DNA of 64,000 nt, taken from NCBI GenBank assembly GCA_964606775.1, contig CAZSGW010000002.1, positions 16,129 to 80,128 on the forward strand, in the 5' to 3' direction. The notes below the pieces were generated by a model. The model was not told the origin of the DNA. It saw nothing but the letters and a program-made list of their open reading frames with translations, and searched no databases. Below, piece by piece: positions 1-60,214 of this stretch; the first letter of the stretch is position 1; each line of letters opens with the position of its first letter. This stretch comes from Candidatus Woesearchaeota archaeon. Its GTDB lineage: Archaea; Nanobdellota; Nanobdellia; Pacearchaeales; GW2011-AR1. The translations under genes and the position numbers were made by a program.

Positions 1-922
1 TTTCTCCTGAAAGCATAATAGCATCCGCACCAAGATAAATAGCATTAGCAACATCCGAAACTTCTGCCCTTGTAGGACGAGGATTTTCTATCATTGTATG
101 GAGCATTTGCGTTGCGACAATAACTGGTTTCTTTTTTTCAATACATTTCTCAATCAAGTGCCTTTGGATTGAAGGAATTTTTTGGGCGTCAATTTCAATT
201 CCTAAATCCCCTCTTGCAATCATTATCCCATAAACATTATCTAAAATCTCTTCGATATTATCTACTCCCTCTTGATTTTCTATTTTAGCAATTATTTTTA
301 TATTGCTATTTTTTTCATCCAATATTTTTTGTATTTCTTTAACATCTTCCTTGTTTCTAACAAAAGAATGTGCGATAAAATCAATATCATTTTCTATTGC
401 AAAATCAATATAACCCCTATCTTTTTTATTTAATGCAGGAAGATTCATATGCCTGCTCGGAACATTAACACTTTTCTTTCCTTTTATCTTCCCAGAATTA
501 TTTGCCTTACATTTTAGTTTATTATCTTCTTTGCAGACAATTTCTAATTCTATATCTCCATCATCTACTAGTATTTTATCTCCTTTCTCAACATCTTCTA
601 CAAATTTATCGTGAGTTAAATATATACATTTCTTTGAAGATTCTTTCTTGCAATCCCCTTCCATAATTATCTCTTGATTCTTATCCAACTCAATTTCTTC
701 AGAACATTTTGTTGTCCTTATCTCTGGACCTTTTGTATCTAACAATAATGGAATCTTGTTTGAAACTTTTTTGACATTCTCAATAATTCTTTTTGTTCCT
801 TCAAAATCTTGATGTGCAGTATTTAGTCTTACGACATTCATTCCCTCCTCATGTAACTCTCGTATAAATTCCTCAGAGCAATTCAAATCCGAAATAGTAG
901 CAACAATTTTTGTATTTTTCAT
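1..922 (-). CDS. pyk: pyruvate kinase, N-terminal part (C-terminus lies beyond window start)
   Basis: rc translation from ATG at 920-922 reads [12 protein letters not shown]...[12 protein letters not shown]...[11 protein letters not shown], the classic PK N-terminus; reading frame is open to window edge. Confidence 0.8.
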
Positions 923-13911: not shown

Positions 13912-13957
13912 ACTTCTAAAAATATTTGACTCTTTATAATAATTATTATATTAAAAT

Positions 13958-14030
13958 GGTCCCGACGGGATTTGAACCCGCGACACCATGGTTAAAAGCC
14001 ATGTGCTCTACCAAGCTGAGCTACGGAACC
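13958..14030 (-). tRNA. tRNA-Lys (anticodon TTT), CCA not encoded
   Basis: rc gives GGTTCCGTAGCTCAGCTTGGTAGAGCACATGGCTTTTAACCATGG...GGGTTCAAATCCCGTCGGGACCA with cloverleaf; anticodon loop CTTTTAA. Confidence 0.85.
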
Positions 14031-22843: not shown

Positions 22844-22914
22844 TGGGCACGGAGGGAATCGAACCCCCAGCTGCCGGTCTGGAGCCGGCTATTTTACCAC
22901 TAAACTACGCACCC
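22844..22914 (-). tRNA. tRNA-Trp (anticodon CCA), CCA tail not encoded
   Basis: rc GGGTGCGTAGTTTAGTGGTAAAATAGCCGGCTCCAGACCGGCAG...GGGGGTTCGATTCCCTCCGTGCCCA; anticodon loop CTCCAGA. Confidence 0.85.
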
Positions 22915-28051: not shown

Positions 28052-28267
28052 GAACCCTGGGAGATTCTTCAGATCACATCAAATAGTAGACCTGAAGCCT
28101 CTCCTGGGGAAAAAGAGGTGATATAAAATTGATGCATCACTAGTATTTAAATGTTTCGATTATGTTACCTCTTGAGAATGACAAGCGCTATTCAACATAA
28201 AGTAGTAAATCCTTAGGACTACTATATAATTTATTTATACACTACATATTATTTCTTATACACTACA

Positions 28268-29104
28268 TTATAAATTATCTAAAGGGCTTCGAGTGTTGAT
28301 TAAATTCGGCGAAGCAATATGAGTATAAATTAAAGTTGTCTCAGGAGATTTGTGCCCGAGCATTGCCTGAACATTCTGAACATCATAACCATTTTCAACT
28401 AAATGAGTAGCAAAACTATGTCTTAATGTATGCGGATGAACGTTCTTTTTTATTCCTGCTTTTTTAGTCGCGTTTAAAACAATTTTCTGCAAACTTCTTA
28501 TATTGTACTTTGTCCCACGATTACTTTGAAACAAATAATCTTTATCTTCCAAATTTTCGATTTCAATCAAATTCTTTATTTTTTCTCTAACAATTTTTGG
28601 TAATGTGATTAACCTATCTTTTCCGCCCTTTCCATTTCGCACATATCCATAATTTTTATCCAGTTCCAAATCTTTGATTTTGACATTAGTTAACTCCGAC
28701 ACTCTTAATCCCGAACCATACAAAAATTCAATCATCAATCTGTGTTTCCAATTTGAAATGGCATTTAATAATTTTCTAACTTCTTCTTTAGACAAAACTT
28801 CAGGTAATTTTTTTGGAGTTTTAGAATATTTTATATCTATCCACATTCTTTTTTCTAAAACATTTTCAAAAAGGAATCTAATTGCCATATGGCAAGTATT
28901 CATTGTACTTCCAGCTAAATTTTTCTCAGACAAATATTCAAGAAACAAACGAACATCCTTTTTCGAAATATATCTTAAATCTTTTTTTGACCAATTCAAA
29001 AACGAATGAATGCAATGCAAATAAGTTTTAGCTGTTTTTGGAGATAATCTTCTCCTTTTACACTCTTTAATTATTTTAGAATCAATGTCTACAAAAGTCT
29101 TCAT
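28268..29104 (-). CDS. tyrosine recombinase/integrase (XerC/D/A-like)
   Basis: catalytic motifs R...HPHTLRHSFATHLVENGYD...LGHKSPETTLIYTH with terminal Tyr. Confidence 0.9.
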   Translation of the reverse strand: MKTFVDIDSKIIKECKRRRLSPKTAKTYLHCIHSFLNWSKKDLRYISKKDVRLFLEYLSEKNLAGSTMNTCHMAIRFLFENVLEKRMWIDIKYSKTPKKLPEVLSKEEVRKLLNAISNWKHRLMIEFLYGSGLRVSELTNVKIKDLELDKNYGYVRNGKGGKDRLITLPKIVREKIKNLIEIENLEDKDYLFQSNRGTKYNIRSLQKIVLNATKKAGIKKNVHPHTLRHSFATHLVENGYDVQNVQAMLGHKSPETTLIYTHIASPNLINTRSPLDNL

Positions 29105-29242
29105 AGTTATTATTTAAAATATATGTTTAAATATATATTTTGAAACTCTAGAATAAAAACAAAAAAGTTTGAGGCTGAACCAAAATTTACTTCTTTTAAC
29201 CAACTTAAATGCTCAAATTTAAAGGAGTTCGTTAAAAGTCTG

Positions 29243-29482
29243 TTATATTCAATTTTCCTTAACAGGAAAACTTTGCTCAAACATTTTTATAGTTAACTCA
29301 CAACTTTATGGAAGTCGCTCAGATTGACTTCGCTCCATTCTCAAAAAGGAATATAACACTGATTATATTCAATTTTCCTTAACAGGAAAACTTTGCTCAA
29401 ACATTTTTATAGTTAACTCACAACTTTATGGAAGTCGCTCAGATTGACTTCGCTCCATTCTCAAAAAGGAATATAACACTGA
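29243..29482. repeat. perfect tandem duplication, 2 x 120 bp, plus degenerate start of a third copy
   Basis: 29243-29362 identical to 29363-29482; unit contains palindrome GAAGTCgctcagattGACTTC. Confidence 0.95.
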
Positions 29483-29598
29483 TTAGTTTCAATTGCAAAT
29501 TCTCTAAATTGTTGAGTTTGAAAATAGGAGAGGACACTTTAAAACCCCGACCACCCACCCCTGTTAGGAGATGTGTGCTTGGTTTTATCTTCGATAAA

Positions 29599-29627
29599 AC
29601 AGATAGTCAAAACTTTCAGTTTTGAGA
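29599..29627. promoter_or_regulatory. 29-nt motif ACAGATAGTCAAAACTTTCAGTTTTGA with 8-bp palindrome arms (copy 1)
   Basis: identical copy at 34960-34988; each upstream of a + strand membrane/secreted-protein gene. Confidence 0.5.
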
Positions 29628-29800
29628 TTTAATTGAAATAATCTTCCCCCAAAAATTGAAAAAACTTCTTTTATCGGACCAGAAAAATCTCTCGAAATTT
29701 CTTCAAAATTTCGCCTAACAAACGATAAAAGGTTCGCTCTGCTCTCCCAAATTTTTTCAAAAATGAAAAGCTTTTTATATTATGCTTTTTAATATATATT

Positions 29801-31240
29801 ATGAAAAGATTAATGGTGTTAATGAGTGTAGTATTAATTTTTAGTATGGTTAGTTTGGTTTCTGCAGATACTTGTACAGATACAGATGGATTAAATTTAT
29901 ATTCAAAAGGGATGATTTCAGGATACGAAGATGAAAATTATGGAGAGTTTGAAGATAGATGTACTATTAATCCTGGTTCAGATTATACTGTTCTTCAAGA
30001 AGGCTATTGTAAAGAAGATGGAAGTTCTGCAATTTTAACAATTACTTGTTCTAGTGAATGTGTTGAGGGAACATGTGTTGGAGAACAACAAAGTGTACCT
30101 AGTTGTTCTGATTCTGATGGAGGATTAGATTTTTATGAAAAAGGTTCTATATCTGGACCAAAATTTACAGGCAAAGAAGAGGATATTGTGAGTTCAAAAA
30201 CTTATGAGGATAGTTGCACAACTAAAGGAGATATGAATCAATTAGAATATTATTGTGATAGTGGGTTAATTGTTTCAGTAAGTCATTGGTGTCCGCAAGG
30301 GTGTAGTGATGGAGCTTGTTTGCCTGAACCTGTTTGTTATGATTCAGATGGTTTAGACTATTATAATAAAGGGTATACTCAAAAAGATGATGACCCTAAA
30401 ACTTATGATGGATGTAAATCACCACATGACGGGACTCTTTATGAAAGATTTTGTAGGGATGACGGCATTCCGTATATTGAAGATTTTTATTGTGAGTTTG
30501 GTTGTAAGGATGGAGCTTGTTTAGAAGAACCTAGTGAAGAAAATGAAACCTGTGTGGAAACAGATAAAGGTAAGGATAGATATTTGAAGGGTAGAACTTA
30601 TATTGGAAAAGATACTCATACTGATTCTTGTTATCAAGATTCTTTAGTTGAGTATTATTGTTCTTTTGATTTAGAAACTCAAAAAGATTTTATTAAAAAA
30701 GATACTCTTGAGTGTACTCAAGGATGTGAGGATGGAGCATGCGTCCAATTAGAATGTTCTGAAACAGATAATGGGAAAGATGGTTTTGTTAAAGGAACAA
30801 CATGGATTGGAGAAGACACTCACACAGACGCTTGTTATAATAACAATGTTGTTGAGTACTATTGTTCTTTTGATTCTGAATTAGATAAACCTTTTATTAA
30901 AAAAGATGAGATAATTTGTGAAGCGGGATGTGAAGATGGGGCTTGTTTAAATAAAACAATAATAAAACCAGATTTAGATGAAGGTCCAGAAGAAATAAAT
31001 GACTTTAACAAATATTTTTGTTATGGGTGTTTAGTGGAGAAGTCATGTTATCCATTAGGATATAGAAAAGGTGGAGATTATTGTTCTGATGAAAATAATG
31101 AATTTATAGTTCAATTAGAAGCAGAATCTTCTTGCGAAAATAATTTTGAATGTGATAGTAATCTTTGTATAAATGATGAGTGTGTAAGTGGAAGCTTATG
31201 GGCTAAATTTATAAGATGGTTAAGTAAGATTTTTGGTTAA
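29801..31240 (+). CDS. secreted Cys-rich protein with five tandem ~70-aa repeats
   Basis: N-terminal signal/TM, repeats each ending GC(E/S/K)DGAC(L/V); C-terminal WAKFIRWLSKIFG motif. Confidence 0.7.
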   Translation: MKRLMVLMSVVLIFSMVSLVSADTCTDTDGLNLYSKGMISGYEDENYGEFEDRCTINPGSDYTVLQEGYCKEDGSSAILTITCSSECVEGTCVGEQQSVPSCSDSDGGLDFYEKGSISGPKFTGKEEDIVSSKTYEDSCTTKGDMNQLEYYCDSGLIVSVSHWCPQGCSDGACLPEPVCYDSDGLDYYNKGYTQKDDDPKTYDGCKSPHDGTLYERFCRDDGIPYIEDFYCEFGCKDGACLEEPSEENETCVETDKGKDRYLKGRTYIGKDTHTDSCYQDSLVEYYCSFDLETQKDFIKKDTLECTQGCEDGACVQLECSETDNGKDGFVKGTTWIGEDTHTDACYNNNVVEYYCSFDSELDKPFIKKDEIICEAGCEDGACLNKTIIKPDLDEGPEEINDFNKYFCYGCLVEKSCYPLGYRKGGDYCSDENNEFIVQLEAESSCENNFECDSNLCINDECVSGSLWAKFIRWLSKIFG

Positions 31241-31269
31241 AAAATTTTCCACCCCCAAGATTATTTCTT

Positions 31270-31290
31270 CTTCTTTTTAGAAAAAAGAAG
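31270..31290 (+). terminator. A/T palindromic hairpin with T-tract just after stop codon
   Basis: CTTCTTTTT-AG-AAAAAGAAG; same kind of element after stops at 33436-33454, 33475-33495, 36433-36451. Confidence 0.4.
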
Positions 31291-31750
31291 CAAAAAGACG
31301 CACACATCTCTTATTTAATGGGTTTTACAGACGGAACCCACCGTCCTAAAGTGTCCTCTCTAATTATATGACGAGAATTTGCAACTTTGATTTTTTGCCT
31401 TCGGCATCGTTGCACTAAAAATCAATCCTCACTTTGTTCGGAGAAACTAACAAGAATTCCCAGCGTCGATAAATCGACCAAATTTAAAATTTCATTTTTT
31501 GCCCACCCGACATAGGAGAAAAAAGCCTGCGTCCTTCGGGCAGATAGCTGAAACAAGTTTCAGAGAAAAACTTCTTTTACCCGACCGACGAGAAAACAAA
31601 CAAAATGCTTCGCACTTTGTATAACAAAGGGTAAAAGGTTTCACTCCGTTACACCCAAATTTTTCATTTAACTTGAGGGGTTCTTAGTCCTTCGGACAAA
31701 TTGTCGGCTCACGCCGAAATGATTAAAAGGTTTAAATTTTTTATTTTCTT

Positions 31751-32491
31751 ATGAATGAAAAAACTTCCCAAGAAGAATTGTTTAATTATATTCTTAACTT
31801 AACTCCAATAATTGAAATTGAAGAAGTAAAAAAAGATTTAACAACTTCAATGAAGAGAAGAGAATATATTAAAATAAATGGAAATAAAATTAATTTTTAT
31901 AATCTTAAAGCTCATTTAGATACAATACAAAGAAGAAAATATCTTAATAATTTCTGCCTTTATGAAATATCAAAAGATTGTGATAACAAAGATAATATAA
32001 CTAAAAAAGAAGTAGAATTTTTAGACAAAGAAAAAAATAATTATCTTCCAAACTTTCTTATTCAATGCGAATATTTTTTATTCTCAACAAAAACTATTTT
32101 TGATACAATTCTAAAAATGATAAATTACATTTTTCCAGAGGAATCTCAACCAACATCTTTTAGGAGAATGGAAAATTGGACAGATGAAATAAAAATTAAA
32201 TCTCTGATTTCTAGTAATTGGGATTGGTTTACTAAATTCAATGAATTAAGAAATAGCTTGACTCATGATGCTATTGCTGGAATAACAACACAAATAAAAA
32301 GCAAACCTCAAGAAGGAATAATTAATTATTCGAAGAGAAACCTAAAGATTTGGAATGAAAAAAGACAGGAGGAGGATATACTACAATTGCCCAATTATTT
32401 TGAAGAATGTTTTTCAAAAACTAAACAATTCATAAATAATTTTTATGAACTTTTACTAAAACAGAAAATAGAAGGAAATTCTATTTCTTGA
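31751..32491 (+). CDS. hypothetical protein (possible HEPN-like Rx4H motif)
   Basis: 246 aa; ELRNSLTHD motif. Confidence 0.45.
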   Translation: MNEKTSQEELFNYILNLTPIIEIEEVKKDLTTSMKRREYIKINGNKINFYNLKAHLDTIQRRKYLNNFCLYEISKDCDNKDNITKKEVEFLDKEKNNYLPNFLIQCEYFLFSTKTIFDTILKMINYIFPEESQPTSFRRMENWTDEIKIKSLISSNWDWFTKFNELRNSLTHDAIAGITTQIKSKPQEGIINYSKRNLKIWNEKRQEEDILQLPNYFEECFSKTKQFINNFYELLLKQKIEGNSIS

Positions 32492-32753
32492 TTAATTCTT
32501 TTGCGACCTTTTCACCTTCTTTTGTCCTCTTGTAAATCCTTCCCGTTCTATCTTCAGGATTTACAACTTCAACAAGTTTTTTATCTCTCAATTCAGATAA
32601 AGCACGAGAAACAAGATTAAAATAAGTGTTGCTGTTACTTTTGTAAATTTTCATAACTAATTCCGAAGGCATCATAGGTTTATCCAAATTCATAAAAACT
32701 TCTTTTCTATTTTTGCCTCTCTTTACAAAACCTATGGCTTTTAGCAATTCCAT
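32481..32753 (-). CDS. small winged-helix transcriptional regulator
   Basis: 90 aa wHTH-like. Confidence 0.5.
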   Translation of the reverse strand: MELLKAIGFVKRGKNRKEVFMNLDKPMMPSELVMKIYKSNSNTYFNLVSRALSELRDKKLVEVVNPEDRTGRIYKRTKEGEKVAKELIKK

Positions 32754-32846
32754 AGCAATCTATATACAAAGAAATTTAAGAAGCAAATTCAACAATCTAT
32801 TAGCAAAAGGAAAAGGTTTATAAAATAGTTTTCTCTATATTTTATT

Positions 32847-33425
32847 ATGGATAAAAAAGTGACTATTGGAATTGTTGTGGCAGTTATAGTTATCGTTGCA
32901 GGATATTTTATTTTCTTTAATCAATCATCTTCTACAATTTTACCTTCTAAACCTCAAACTTATAGCGGAGATGTTTCTAGTTTAGTTTTTAGTCTAGAAG
33001 AATTACCTGAAGGATACAAAATTGCCGAAAGAACTCCAAGAACAAAATCAGATGTTTCCGAAGAAGGTTTAAGTTGGGGATGGAGCGAAGGTTATTACAT
33101 AAGATATCTTAAAGGTGGAGAAGAAAGTTTATTTGATGTAAGCCGTATTGAGTTATATGTTTCAAGATATCCTTTAGAAAATGTAAGTAAGGGTATTGAA
33201 AATGGGGCTCCAGAATATGAAGGTTATACTATGGAAGAATTGCCAAATCCAAATATTGGCGAAATGTCTTTGGCGACAAGATACACAGATGATGATTTAG
33301 GTTTAAGAGAATATCAAATTGAATTTTATGATAAAGATATTTATATTACTCTTATGAATGGTGGTTCAGCAACAGATTATGAATTGTTAAAAGAACTCGC
33401 TAAAAAAATTGAAGGTAAGATTTAA
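32847..33425 (+). CDS. N-terminally membrane-anchored extracytoplasmic protein
   Basis: single N-terminal TM helix then soluble domain. Confidence 0.5.
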   Translation: MDKKVTIGIVVAVIVIVAGYFIFFNQSSSTILPSKPQTYSGDVSSLVFSLEELPEGYKIAERTPRTKSDVSEEGLSWGWSEGYYIRYLKGGEESLFDVSRIELYVSRYPLENVSKGIENGAPEYEGYTMEELPNPNIGEMSLATRYTDDDLGLREYQIEFYDKDIYITLMNGGSATDYELLKELAKKIEGKI

Positions 33426-33645
33426 TTCTGAAAACTTCTTTTAGAAAAAGAAGGCAAAATAAGAACCCCTCATTTTCTTTTTTAGAAAAAAAGAAACAAA
33501 AAAGGGCAGGCTTTTTTCTCTAATTATTTGGTCGTCGGAAACAACCATCCTCCTCCCCCACCCTAAAATGAAATTTTAAACTCACGAGGAAACTTTTTGT
33601 TTCAGCTCGTGCCCTTCGGGTCTGGGAACAGCAGATTAATTGCAA

Positions 33646-33820
33646 TTCTAAAACCTGCCTTTCTCGACGAGAAAGTAACCATAAATCCTAAAAGTTGTCG
33701 CCTTCGTTAAACGGACAAACGAGGAGAAAAAAAGAAATGCTTCGCACTTTCTTATAACAATCGTTTAACGGTTCGCTTCGCTCTCCCAAATTTTTTCTTG
33801 ATTGAAAGTTGGGGGGCTAA
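33646..33820. repeat. left arm of long imperfect inverted repeat
   Basis: TTCTAAAACCTGCC...AGTTGTCGCC...TTTTTTCTTGATTGAAAGTTGGGGGGCTAA matches rc of 34724-34830. Confidence 0.8.
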
Positions 33821-33822
33821 AA

Positions 33823-34059
33823 CTATTTTTTCCCAGACAGCCAAGAATTAATATGTTCTCTAACTTTTTTATTTGTGGCATAAAGAAAAATTCCTCCCAA
33901 TCCCACAATTACAGAACCAACATACGCAGGAACATCACCAATCAAAGATTTAATCACAAGAAAAACAACAACAATCATTATTGCTGCGACAATGATCAAT
34001 TTTCCTAAATCCAAAATGTCTTCTGTTAATTGTCTTGTTTCTCTGCTCATGTTAACCAA
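33823..34059 (-). CDS. small two-TM membrane protein
   Basis: 78 aa, hydrophobic core. Confidence 0.5.
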   Translation of the reverse strand: MVNMSRETRQLTEDILDLGKLIIVAAIMIVVVFLVIKSLIGDVPAYVGSVIVGLGGIFLYATNKKVREHINSWLSGKK

Positions 34060-34681
34060 ATACCTTTTTTAAGAATCCTTTTTTCTTAGGGGTAATTTTA
34101 GGCATACCATTCTCTTCCATTATCTTAATAACTGCTTCTGCCTGTGCTTTTGCCTCTTCTCCAATAAAGAGTTTTCCCAATTCGTTTATTTTTTCTTCAT
34201 ACCATTTACGTAAAGAAACGCCAAAAGCTTTCTTAGATAAATTTGGATTTTCAATTTCCATCTTTATTAATTTTTTTAATTCAACATCAATAAAAAATAC
34301 TTCTGCATAAACTATGTTAATCCTGTCTTTTTTATCTTCTCCTTTGTATGGAGTCCAAGAAATTGAAACTCTTTCGGGCAATTCATCCATTCTTCCAGCA
34401 TAAATCACATCTCTTAATATTGAAATTGCAAACCCATCAATTAAATCTCTTTTGTCCCTTAATTCTTCAGGACTACATTTCTTTCCTTTTGGGATTACTT
34501 TTATTTCAAACATCCTACTTCCTTCTTCGTTAATATGTCCTTTTTTATCTACATCTACATCCCAACCTAATTCCTCTGAATAATGGGATAATTCTTTTTT
34601 AGCATTAACAATCCCACTAGAAGTAGCACTAATTGTAAAATAGGTTTCAATCCATTTATAATTCTCTAAATCTTCTGCCAT
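34052..34681 (-). CDS. hypothetical protein
   Basis: 209-aa ORF overlapping downstream small membrane-protein gene. Confidence 0.5.
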   Translation of the reverse strand: MAEDLENYKWIETYFTISATSSGIVNAKKELSHYSEELGWDVDVDKKGHINEEGSRMFEIKVIPKGKKCSPEELRDKRDLIDGFAISILRDVIYAGRMDELPERVSISWTPYKGEDKKDRINIVYAEVFFIDVELKKLIKMEIENPNLSKKAFGVSLRKWYEEKINELGKLFIGEEAKAQAEAVIKIMEENGMPKITPKKKGFLKKVFG

Positions 34682-34723
34682 ATTATATAGATTAGAGAGA
34701 ACATATTTATAAAATTATCTATC

Positions 34724-34830
34724 TTAGCCCCCCAACTTTGTCTTTCAGACATTTAGTCTGCCTACGGCAGAGATATATAAAATCAAGAAAAAACTACGGC
34801 GACAACTGGATTTACGGCAGGTTTTAGAAC
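34724..34830. repeat. right arm of inverted repeat (shorter, deleted version of left arm)
   Basis: TTAGCCCCCCAACTT...GGCGACAACT...GGCAGGTTTTAGAA. Confidence 0.8.
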
Positions 34831-34959
34831 TTCTTCGGAAAACTTCGTTTTCCTCGACCACGCTGCGCTCTCGCCTTCGGCTCGGGGCAATTAACAGCGA
34901 TTATATTCAATCGTCGTGTAGATTTATTAAAAGGGGATTGCCGCCTTAGTCCCTTTGGG

Positions 34960-34988
34960 ACAGATAGTCAAAACTTTCAGTTTTGAAG
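34960..34988. promoter_or_regulatory. 29-nt palindromic motif copy 2
   Basis: identical to 29599-29627. Confidence 0.5.
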
Positions 34989-35035
34989 ATTTATTTACAA
35001 AGATTTTTATATCTCCATTTATATTTATATTCATA

Positions 35036-35515
35036 ATGGCAAGACATTATGATGACGGATATGAAATGTATGTTCCAGGAAAAAAGAAACATCATTCACA
35101 TCACTATTCCTCAAGAGGACATTTGAACTTTAAAAATTTCCTTAGAAGATATGTTTATTTTAGAATTCAAAATGATGTTGAACCCCATCTAAAACAATTT
35201 GGCATAATATTTATTATTGGACTTGTTTTGAATTATGTATATTATCAAACTCTTTCATTAAGATACCTCTTTATTGGAGGAGTAAATGAATGGTTTAATG
35301 TTCTAATGCCAACATTAAATTATGGTTTTGGGACAGGTTATAATTTATTTTATCTGATTATTAACGGAATTTTTTATGCCTATTTTTATTATAGTTTTAT
35401 ATTAGTTATTTACAATACGATAACTAATTTAGATGATAGAGATACATGGGTTATGATTGGATGGTTTGCATTAATAATATGGATAATAACAAAGATATTT
35501 CCGCAAATAATATAA
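35036..35515 (+). CDS. membrane protein, His-rich N-terminus (start placed at internal ATG)
   Basis: TATA-like ATTTATATTTATAT ~20 nt upstream of ATG 35036; ORF-track start 34955 would read through the conserved palindromic motif. Confidence 0.45.
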   Translation: MARHYDDGYEMYVPGKKKHHSHHYSSRGHLNFKNFLRRYVYFRIQNDVEPHLKQFGIIFIIGLVLNYVYYQTLSLRYLFIGGVNEWFNVLMPTLNYGFGTGYNLFYLIINGIFYAYFYYSFILVIYNTITNLDDRDTWVMIGWFALIIWIITKIFPQII

Positions 35516-35541
35516 ACAAATATTAACAATCAATTATAAAG

Positions 35542-36414
35542 ATGAAAGATAAAATCCTAAATCAAACAAAACATTTCTGTAAAAAGAAATGGAATCAGTT
35601 TACTTTTTGGTTTACAAAAAAAGAGCATCCAAGAAGTATATTAAATAAAAATGTGTTCTTTCATGATTTACTAAAAATTATCGGTTTAATTTTAGTATTC
35701 TTGATTGTTTATTCAAATGTTGATAAGCTAAATCAAATTGTTTTGATATTTATAAAAATAGGTTCACTATTACAACTCGTATTGCTTTTCTTTATTTTAA
35801 GAAAAGCATGGCATTTGACAATTAACTTGAAATACTTTTTTCGTGGACTAAACCATGGAACAAAAGCTATAATTGCTATCGCTTTGGTTTTATTACTCTT
35901 TATGGCTTTTCAAAATCAAGAAAAAGTAGTTGATTCGGTAGTTGAATCTTACGAAAAAGCAGAATTTCAAAAATTTAATCCTATTAATGCCAATCTAAAT
36001 TTATCTTCATTAAATCTTAAAGGAATAACAAAGCAACTTAACACTTGTCCACAAATTGATGTTCCTATTAATTTTCCTAAATATGGAGACCCTAATATCA
36101 AAAGTCAAACCTATGATGGATGGAAAGTTAAAGGAAGTGCAACTTGTAGAAAGGGAACAAAAGAAGGAGAAAATCTAAATAGATATTATTGTGGTGGATA
36201 TGAAAGTTTTATGGGAATAGGAAGTGTTAATGCTTATGTTGAAAAAACAACAATTTCTGATGACGGAGATATCGGAAAAACTTACAAATATGTTATATGG
36301 AATATTTATGATGAAGATAAAAACTTTGTAGAAACAAGATGTATCGGAGATCCTGACGAGTTTGATAAAAAACAAGCTGAAGCATTTTATAATGAAATGC
36401 TAAAATGGAGCTAA
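35542..36414 (+). CDS. membrane-anchored protein with Cys-containing extracytoplasmic domain
   Basis: N-terminal TM helices, C-terminal soluble domain. Confidence 0.5.
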   Translation: MKDKILNQTKHFCKKKWNQFTFWFTKKEHPRSILNKNVFFHDLLKIIGLILVFLIVYSNVDKLNQIVLIFIKIGSLLQLVLLFFILRKAWHLTINLKYFFRGLNHGTKAIIAIALVLLLFMAFQNQEKVVDSVVESYEKAEFQKFNPINANLNLSSLNLKGITKQLNTCPQIDVPINFPKYGDPNIKSQTYDGWKVKGSATCRKGTKEGENLNRYYCGGYESFMGIGSVNAYVEKTTISDDGDIGKTYKYVIWNIYDEDKNFVETRCIGDPDEFDKKQAEAFYNEMLKWS

Positions 36415-36633
36415 AAATCTAATTCTAATTTTCTTTTTTAAAAAAAAGAAACAAAAAAGGCGGCGGCAATCCCCAGAAAAAAAACTATACACACGACGAC
36501 TTTGAGTTTTCCCTTCGGGACGTTGCACTAAAACTCAATCCCTAACGGGAGAATATAACAAGGATTACATTCAATTTCTTCACTCCATTTAACAGCACAA
36601 AAGCAATAAAAACCCTCGACTCTTCACTCTTAA

Positions 36634-42438: not shown

Positions 42439-42511
42439 GGCGGAAGGAGGGAATTGAACCCTCTTCTCGCGGACCACAACCACACGTCATAACCATTAGA
42501 CCACAACCGCC
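42439..42511 (-). tRNA. tRNA-His (anticodon GTG) with genome-encoded G-1
   Basis: rc G-GCGGTTGTGGTCTAATGGTTATGACGTGTGGTTGTGGTCCGCGAGAAGAGGGTTCAATTCCCTCCTTCCGCC-C; anticodon stem TGTGG/CCGCG, loop TTGTGGT; G-1 pairs discriminator C73; two U-U mismatches in acceptor stem. Confidence 0.7.
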
Positions 42512-52898: not shown

Positions 52899-54077
52899 GT
52901 GATGATGGCAAAGAAAAAATCTTCCAAAAGAAAATCTAGTAAAAAGACCCCCCATAAAAAAAGTTCAAGTAATTCTAAGTCAGTTAACAAAGCAGACTTT
53001 GAAACATTTAAATTTGGAGTTGAGCGATTAAAGGAATTAAAAAAGGAACTAAATTCTTTAGATACAAAAGGATTCTCTTTGGAAGAGGAGTCAATAAAAT
53101 CGAAATTAAAAGATGTAACTCAAATACCTACGATTGAGAAAGAATTAAAACTACTTAAACAAAAAATAAAAAACAAACCAAAAAAATCTTCCAAAAAAAA
53201 GTCTAGCAAAAAATCTTCACATAAGAAAACTTCTAAAAAATTCACGTCTCACAAAAAATCAAAAAAGATTACAAAAGCGGACAAAGAAAAAGCACCAACT
53301 CTAAAATTAAAAACTGATGAAGATATAGCAAGAGATTTTGCAGTTAAGATTTCTCAGAAATTCAATAAAATCGTTAAATCAATAGTATTATTTGGTTCAA
53401 CAATTAAAAAAGACAAGGTTTCAGGTTCAGATATTGATGTAATGATATTGATTGATGATGCTTCAATAAAATGGGACCAAGAGTTAATTGCATGGTATAG
53501 AGAAGAACTTGAAAAAATACTAAGAGCAAACCCTTACAATAAGGAACTTCACGTTAACACCGTTAAACTAAGTACTTGGTGGGAAGATTTAATGAGGGGA
53601 GACCCTGTTGTAATCAACGTTTTAAGATATGGGGAAGCAATGGTTGATTTAGCAGGTTTCTTTAATCCATTAAAACATTTATTAATACAAGGAAAAATAA
53701 AAGCAACCCCCGAAGCAATTCATAGTTGTTTGCAAAGAGCTCCATTACATTTAACCAGAAGTAAAGCGGCGGAACTTGGAGCCGTAGAAGGTTTATACTG
53801 GTCAATGGTAGATTCAGCTCATGCAGCACTTATAGCAGCAAACGTGCTACCTCCTTCTCCAGAGCATATTTCTGAAGAATTAAAGAAAACTTTTGTTAGC
53901 AGAGGAAAACTCAATTCAAAATATCCAAAATGGTTTGGAGAATTGTTAGAGCTTCATAAAAAAATAGAACACAGGGAAATTTCTGACCTCAAAGGAGTTG
54001 AGATAGATGATTGGCAGAAAAAAACTGAAGACTTCATGATGGTCATGACAAAACTAGTAGATGAAATGGTTAGTTAA
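52899..54077 (+). CDS. Pol-beta superfamily nucleotidyltransferase with K/S-rich N-terminal region and helical C-terminal domain
   Basis: LFGSTIKKDKVSGSDIDVMILIDD NTase motif; paralogous to 56192-57973 product. Confidence 0.6.
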   Translation: MMMAKKKSSKRKSSKKTPHKKSSSNSKSVNKADFETFKFGVERLKELKKELNSLDTKGFSLEEESIKSKLKDVTQIPTIEKELKLLKQKIKNKPKKSSKKKSSKKSSHKKTSKKFTSHKKSKKITKADKEKAPTLKLKTDEDIARDFAVKISQKFNKIVKSIVLFGSTIKKDKVSGSDIDVMILIDDASIKWDQELIAWYREELEKILRANPYNKELHVNTVKLSTWWEDLMRGDPVVINVLRYGEAMVDLAGFFNPLKHLLIQGKIKATPEAIHSCLQRAPLHLTRSKAAELGAVEGLYWSMVDSAHAALIAANVLPPSPEHISEELKKTFVSRGKLNSKYPKWFGELLELHKKIEHREISDLKGVEIDDWQKKTEDFMMVMTKLVDEMVS

Positions 54078-59320: not shown

Positions 59321-59392
59321 GGTCCCATAGTCCAGTGGTTAAGACGATTCGTTTACACCGAATAAACCCAAGTTCGATTCTTGGTGGGACCA
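59321..59392 (+). tRNA. tRNA-Val (anticodon TAC), CCA not encoded
   Basis: GGTCCCATAGTCCAGTGGTTAAGACGATTCGTTTACACCGAAT...CCAAGTTCGATTCTTGGTGGGACCA; anticodon loop TTTACAC. Confidence 0.85.
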
Positions 59393-60142: not shown

Positions 60143-60214
60143 GCGTGAGTAGTTCAGCGGTTAGAATACGTCGTTGCCAACGATGTGACCCGGGTTCGAT
60201 TCCCGGCTCGCGCA
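60143..60214 (+). tRNA. tRNA-Gly (anticodon GCC), CCA not encoded
   Basis: GCGTGAGTAGTTCAGCGGTTAGAATACGTCGTTGCCAACGATG...CCGGGTTCGATTCCCGGCTCGCGCA. Confidence 0.85.

Follow-up and report, generated by a model that had tools for sequence, protein, structure and literature searches.

The closest described counterparts of the element analyzed here are the attC sites of integrons. An attC site is recognized by IntI as a folded bottom strand. It shares with the element a folded, single-stranded-DNA-like hairpin with covarying stems, a position at the 3' side of genes, and a place in arrays that begin with a tyrosine recombinase pointing away from them. Integrons have been found in MAGs of Nanoarchaeota, Woesearchaeota, and Pacearchaeota, archaeal cassettes are enriched in secreted proteins, and the IntI-specific region defines integron integrases, archaeal ones included (Ghaly et al. 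2022, PMC9668308). The element, too, occurs in Nanoarchaeota MAGs, and secreted proteins are again among the products of its cassette-like genes. Several features nevertheless set it apart. The boundary boxes of attC sites, R'' (RYYYAAC) and R' (GTTRRRY), are absent from the element; attC sites have two to three unpaired bases, whereas the element has an invariant bulge of 10 nt; attC sites usually vary between genomes, whereas the core of the element is nearly identical across genera; and the integron integrase carries an IntI-specific domain around patch III, which the recombinase encoded next to the element lacks.

Other known systems share part of this plan. The archaeal XerA/dif system resembles it in its enzyme, the recombinase here also being XerA-like (NF040815; continuous with Pyrococcus XerA, 5hxy), but dif is a palindrome of ~28 bp found once per genome at the replication terminus, whereas the element is structured, occurs in several copies, and sits at gene 3' ends. 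The attP(+) hairpin of CTXphi is a folded-DNA site recognized by the Xer-type recombinases XerC and XerD (as cited in PMC5495485); it serves a bacterial phage for integration, once per element, in contrast to the multicopy site in archaeal gene arrays described here. REP/BIME sequences are likewise short conserved hairpins at gene 3' ends and are moved by a tyrosine-family enzyme, RAYT, but REPs are far more numerous per genome and RAYTs are IS200-like (HUH) enzymes, whereas the element is of low copy number and its associated enzyme is a tyrosine recombinase.

Architecture of the two copies in the window

The stretch of DNA analyzed (the window; 64,000 nucleotides) belongs to a DPANN archaeal genome, G000, of 563 kb in 9 contigs with a GC content of 31.7%. 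Two copies of the element were read from the window sequence, B (31385-31454) and E (36500-36563), both on the plus strand, in direct orientation and 5.1 kb apart. In B, the 5' arm of the outer stem, TTGATTTTT (31387-31395), pairs with the 3' arm AAAAATCAA (31417-31425) around a 4-bp inner hairpin, TGCC-TTC-GGCA (31396-31406), and the bulge TCGTTGCACT (31407-31416); the tail motif GAAACTAACAAG follows at 31443-31454. In E, TTGAGTTTT (36502-36510) pairs with AAAACTCAA (36530-36538) around the inner hairpin CCC-TTC-GGG (36511-36519) and the bulge ACGTTGCACT (36520-36529), and the tail AACGGGAGAATATAACAAGG (36539-36563) carries GAATATAACAAGG, the counterpart of the tail motif of B.

In the common plan, an AT-rich outer stem of ~9 bp encloses a small inner hairpin capped by a UUC loop, together with a bulge of 10 nt, (N)CGTTGCACT; in B and E this bulge separates the inner hairpin from the 3' arm of the outer stem. 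The whole folded element comprises ~100 letters and ends in a conserved GAA(A/T)(C/T)TAACA motif. Set against the attC plan, an imperfect palindrome that forms R and L stems with two to three unpaired bases, an open central spacer, and a variable top, the fold offers a stem, an internal loop, and a variable, covarying top hairpin, with the 10-nt bulge as its unpaired part. Where the top strand of an attC site has R'' ending in AAC at the 5' end and R' starting with GTT at the 3' end, most copies of the element close their 5' flank with A/G-AC; no GTT stands at the 3' end, and GTT occurs only inside the bulge.

A first-pass annotation of the DNA had described B and E as look-alike hairpins with paired substitutions, and the sequence at these places agrees. 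Both compensatory changes are real, a U-A pair replaced by G-C in the outer stem and a G-C pair replaced by C-G in the inner stem. The inner hairpin was given correctly for E (CCC/GGG) and one base pair too short for B, where the proposed GCC/GGC is actually TGCC/GGCA. The single-stranded segment that had been called unchanging, the bulge, proved to be constant or nearly so across copies.

Occurrence in other genomes

An exact search of GTDB contigs for the 17-mer CGTTGCACTAAAAMTCA matched at least 118 contigs, ~85 of which bear the full element; the remainder are chance matches to the 17-mer. A profile built from 21 copies and run over the collected loci recovered ~100 copies, ~96 of them distinct, in DPANN archaea, which excludes a chance similarity limited to two sites. 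The carriers are mostly MAGs of Woesearchaeota, Pacearchaeota, and other Nanoarchaeota. A few are labelled Methanosarcinales, Thermoplasmatales, or CPR bacteria, and these are probably mis-binned episymbiont contigs. Within the order of the host, 48 of 151 genomes contain the element, with 1 to 4 copies each. G000 itself has only B, E, and one divergent third copy, located on the 3.3-kb contig C9 (~201-277, minus strand), which retains the CGTTGCACTA bulge with rearranged stems, followed by GCAACTAACAGGAATTTAACGG. In a search of sequencing runs with 9 sampled words, the holders had 2 to 3 words each.

Compensatory changes and sequence constancy

Covariation was computed in Python on a structure-anchored alignment of 75 distinct copies, with the UUC loop and the outer arms as anchors. 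The loop-closing C-G pair was not counted as evidence, because it is fixed by the construction of this alignment. Pairing in the inner stem amounts to 95%, and its three pairs beyond the loop-closing one, each 89 to 99% paired, show 57 two-sided changes between them. The first occurs as CG in 51 copies, GC in 13, TA in 7, and AT in 3; the second as GC in 46 and CG in 14; and the third as TA in 35, GC in 13, and CG in 5. The covariation score was 0.61, compared with at most 0.20 in 200 column shuffles, and pairing in those shuffles reached 73.5% at most; when the pairs were slid by 1 to 3 columns, pairing fell to 16 to 39%. Strong as this margin over the shuffles is, the copies are related and the shuffle control therefore overstates their independence, so that a count of the different kinds of pair is the sturdier measure. 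Variants of the inner stem that retain the hairpin include GCC/GGC, CCC/GGG, GCTC/GAGC, CGGC/GCCG, CGGAC/GTCCG, and GGGC/GCCC. MAFFT alignments set the inner hairpin wrongly, and RNAalifold applied to them returned weak or partial structures.

The outer stem, also 95% paired, is nearly invariant, with a single covarying pair (TA in 48 copies versus GC in 13). Some variants (TAAAATTTT) disrupt the lower pairs of the outer stem. Across genera, the sequences of the bulge and of the outer stem hardly change, and the 45-nt core is 98 to 100% identical. Both sequence and structure are thus under selection, because the inner stem compensates while the bulge and outer stem stay nearly constant. The earlier view of selection on a fold rather than on primary sequence is borne out as regards the fold and has to be given up as regards the sequence.

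Gene arrays and the linked recombinase

The element sits at the 3' ends of cassette-like genes in arrays, as attC sites do. About 45 of the ~96 copies follow a same-strand gene by 35 to 230 nt; the others lie between convergent genes. Arrays contain 1 to 4 copies in direct orientation, spaced 0.5 to 7 kb apart, and many loci have two or three.

In the window, a gene for a XerA-type tyrosine recombinase (28268-29104, minus strand) has its start codon facing the array. The protein scores above the cut-off of NCBIfam model NF040815 (archaeal XerA, annotated as "site-specific tyrosine recombinase/integron integrase") and below that of TIGR02249 (integron integrase). Its top PDB match is IntI4 of V. 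cholerae (2a3v; E value, 2e-43), and XerA is also among the best matches. The alignment to XerA (Pyrococcus 5hxy; 4a8e) is continuous, whereas that to IntI4 leaves residues 202 to 242 unmatched, a gap of 41 amino acids, and the recombinase therefore lacks the IntI-specific region. Of the four tyrosine recombinases encoded in G000, one on contig C7 (26932-27729) shares 43% identity with the element-linked enzyme and is probably the housekeeping XerA.

Close homologs of the recombinase (phmmer E values of 1e-48 to 1e-138) were found in 9 of ~90 element loci. In all nine, the recombinase gene is situated upstream and on the opposite strand, and points away from the element, at a distance of 0.9 to 6.6 kb. 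The genomes G145 and G084 are arranged like G000, with a recombinase that heads the array, points away, and lies 0.6 to 1.4 kb from the element. The placement expected of an integron, with the integrase gene beside attI and the array and transcribed away from them, is thus seen in G000, in the nine loci, and in G145 and G084, with attI as a candidate only. The layout of G000 is retained in G007, where a homologous recombinase is followed by a gene for a 1091-aa protein, whose C terminus matches the product of the Cys-rich gene of G000, and then by the element; both genomes also have a 29-nt motif in the interval from the recombinase start to the first gene. This order of recombinase, possible attI-like region, and genes with the element resembles the integron layout of intI, attI, and cassettes oriented away from intI. 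Across the 151 genomes of the order, the close recombinase clade is present in only ~6, compared with 48 for the element, a small comparison in which co-occurrence is suggestive only.

Flanking DNA changes at the element when loci are compared with B. In pairwise comparison, locus L003 matches B through the upstream DNA and the entire element, and the likeness stops just past the 3' arm; locus L002 is alike in the bulge, the 3' arm, and ~300 nt downstream and differs in the 5' half; and in locus L005 the likeness is limited to the element. The changes fit recombination at the element, although homologous recombination between identical cores could give the same pattern.

Our preferred reading, to which we assign a probability of about one-half, is that B and E are folded single-stranded DNA recombination sites of an integron-like cassette system in DPANN archaea that uses a XerA-family recombinase. 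Each copy would mark the 3' end of a gene unit, or cassette, within an array. The recombinase at the array head, pointing away, would recognize the folded site and catalyze strand exchange, which would allow genes to be captured and excised and to pass from one array or genome to another. This reading draws directly on the conserved fold, the gene-3'-end arrays, the linkage to the recombinase, and the exchange of flanks at the element; from these we infer that the element, as single-stranded DNA, is a substrate of the recombinase. The first-pass annotation had left the choice between an RNA and an attC-like single-stranded DNA site. The recombinase-headed arrays, the position at gene 3' ends, and the exchange of flanking DNA favor the latter, even though the attC boxes and the IntI domain were looked for and are missing; the element would be attC-like in mechanism and at most a candidate member of the attC class. 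Two further observations weigh against an integron-like system. A cassette running from B to E would be unusual, with 4.7 kb and six genes on two strands, and many element-bearing genomes have no close homolog of the recombinase.

Archaeal integrons having been described already (PMC9668308), what would be new is a XerA-driven system whose site combines sequence and structure. The near-identical core across genera suggests sequence-specific recognition, and we tentatively raise the further possibility, itself doubtful, of a separate DPANN cassette system of second, independent origin, using a XerA-family enzyme rather than IntI and a structured, sequence-specific site, with the CGTTGCACT bulge on a hairpin.

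Genomic island around copies B and E

In relatives from many genera, the genes to the left of the G000 recombinase sit directly upstream of ScpA, and the intervening segment of G000 is therefore an island. It spans ~8.4 kb (~28200-36600) and comprises the recombinase, the Cys-rich gene, B, six genes, and E, all missing from the relatives; it begins on the left near 28200 and is bounded on the right by E.

A possible attI-like region (29105-29800) separates the recombinase start from the first cassette-like gene. It includes a perfect 120-bp tandem repeat (29243-29482), each unit of which has a GGAATATAACA motif resembling the element tail, and the repeat may be an attI-like site. A 53-nt motif (29529-29580) is found again in three other loci, close to recombinases and elements. 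The first cassette-like gene (29801-31240, plus strand) encodes a secreted, Cys-rich protein of 479 aa with no match in Pfam, and B lies 145 nt past its end. The segment between B and E holds six open reading frames (31751-36414), mostly of unknown function. E is 86 nt past the gene for a 290-aa membrane protein and 70 nt ahead of ScpA (36634).

Two further motifs recur within the island. The T-rich TTTTCTTTTTTAGAAAAAAAGAAACAAAAAAGG immediately follows the stop codon of each of three genes of the island, at 31269-31296 (plus strand), 33469-33511, and 36425-36467, and may be part of a cassette 3' boundary unit; the copy at 33469 is not followed by an element. A motif of ~73 nt just upstream of the first cassette-like gene (29696-29768) is found again within the B-E segment (33735-33807) and may be a promoter or a marker of cassette 5' ends.

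The island also bears on a different account, in which the element is the end of a nonautonomous mobile element, or the attL/attR of integrated elements, moved by a XerA-type recombinase and left as direct repeats at island borders. Directly oriented copies do bracket DNA segments, as B and E do over 5.1 kb, and E lies beside ScpA, exactly at the right border of the island that relatives lack. The element was not found among IMG/VR viral contigs, which also agrees with this account, as does a weak likeness to E in the relatives' own sequence at the island site. However, no element copy was found at the left border of the island (~28200), B lies inside the island, and the copies have neither inverted terminal repeats nor target duplications and are often single at gene 3' ends. 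The account keeps its footing because E is exactly at the island border, although the left border is unmarked; overall we consider it improbable. The sequence of the relatives in question, GACTAGGCTTTTCCCTAATAGAGTAGTGACCTT, is located upstream of ScpA (e.g., locus L140, 1300-1400) and may be a degenerate target site.

Transcribed RNA as an alternative

The element could instead be a structured RNA that is transcribed either within the 3' untranslated region of the gene before it or as a small RNA; its bulge would bind a protein or a target RNA, and it would have spread between loci on mobile DNA. The plus-strand RNA folds of B and E beat dinucleotide shuffles (z of about -2.2), but the two strands score alike when folded with DNA parameters. 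The core of the element occurs with diverse flanks in aquatic, salt-lake, and marine metatranscriptome contigs, which show neither strand nor ends; its presence there could reflect DNA carry-over. An invariant bulge would suit a sequence-specific binding site, and known attC sites double as mRNA structures that modulate translation. Against it, TATA-like boxes stand upstream of only some copies, making a promoter inconsistent, no terminator follows the element, and the linkage to the recombinase and the placement at gene 3' ends are left unexplained. We judge an RNA function unlikely.

Rfam searches at gathering and E-value thresholds gave no match at the element, and other candidates were ruled out: RNase P RNA and SRP RNA (those of G000 lie elsewhere), a leader specific to a single family of genes (different genes follow the copies), a viral element (none in IMG/VR), the dif site of the housekeeping XerA (the element has multiple copies, is structured, and is not a 28-bp palindrome), and C/D or H/ACA box sRNAs, the hammerhead ribozyme, split-tRNA halves, and TnpB/IS200 omega RNA (their motifs are absent).

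Implications and other features of the window

If the integron-like cassette reading is correct, DPANN archaea own a means to collect and shuffle genes. Because the cassette genes code in many cases for secreted or unknown proteins and DPANN archaea are symbionts with tiny genomes, such a system could shape contact with their hosts. Gene transfer between archaea and co-occurring bacteria would also be possible, and the near-invariant site would point to a mode of recognition unlike the structure-only reading by IntI.

Elsewhere in G000, the archaeal SRP RNA and RNase P RNA are found on contigs C4 and C5 as divergent DPANN versions that score below the Rfam gathering thresholds. The window also contains tRNA genes at 13957-14030, 22844-22914, and 42439-42510 on the minus strand, the last with a weaker score, and at 59321-59392 and 60143-60214 on the plus strand, as well as a gene with lysine-rich coding repeats of the D2/D5 family (52914-53288).
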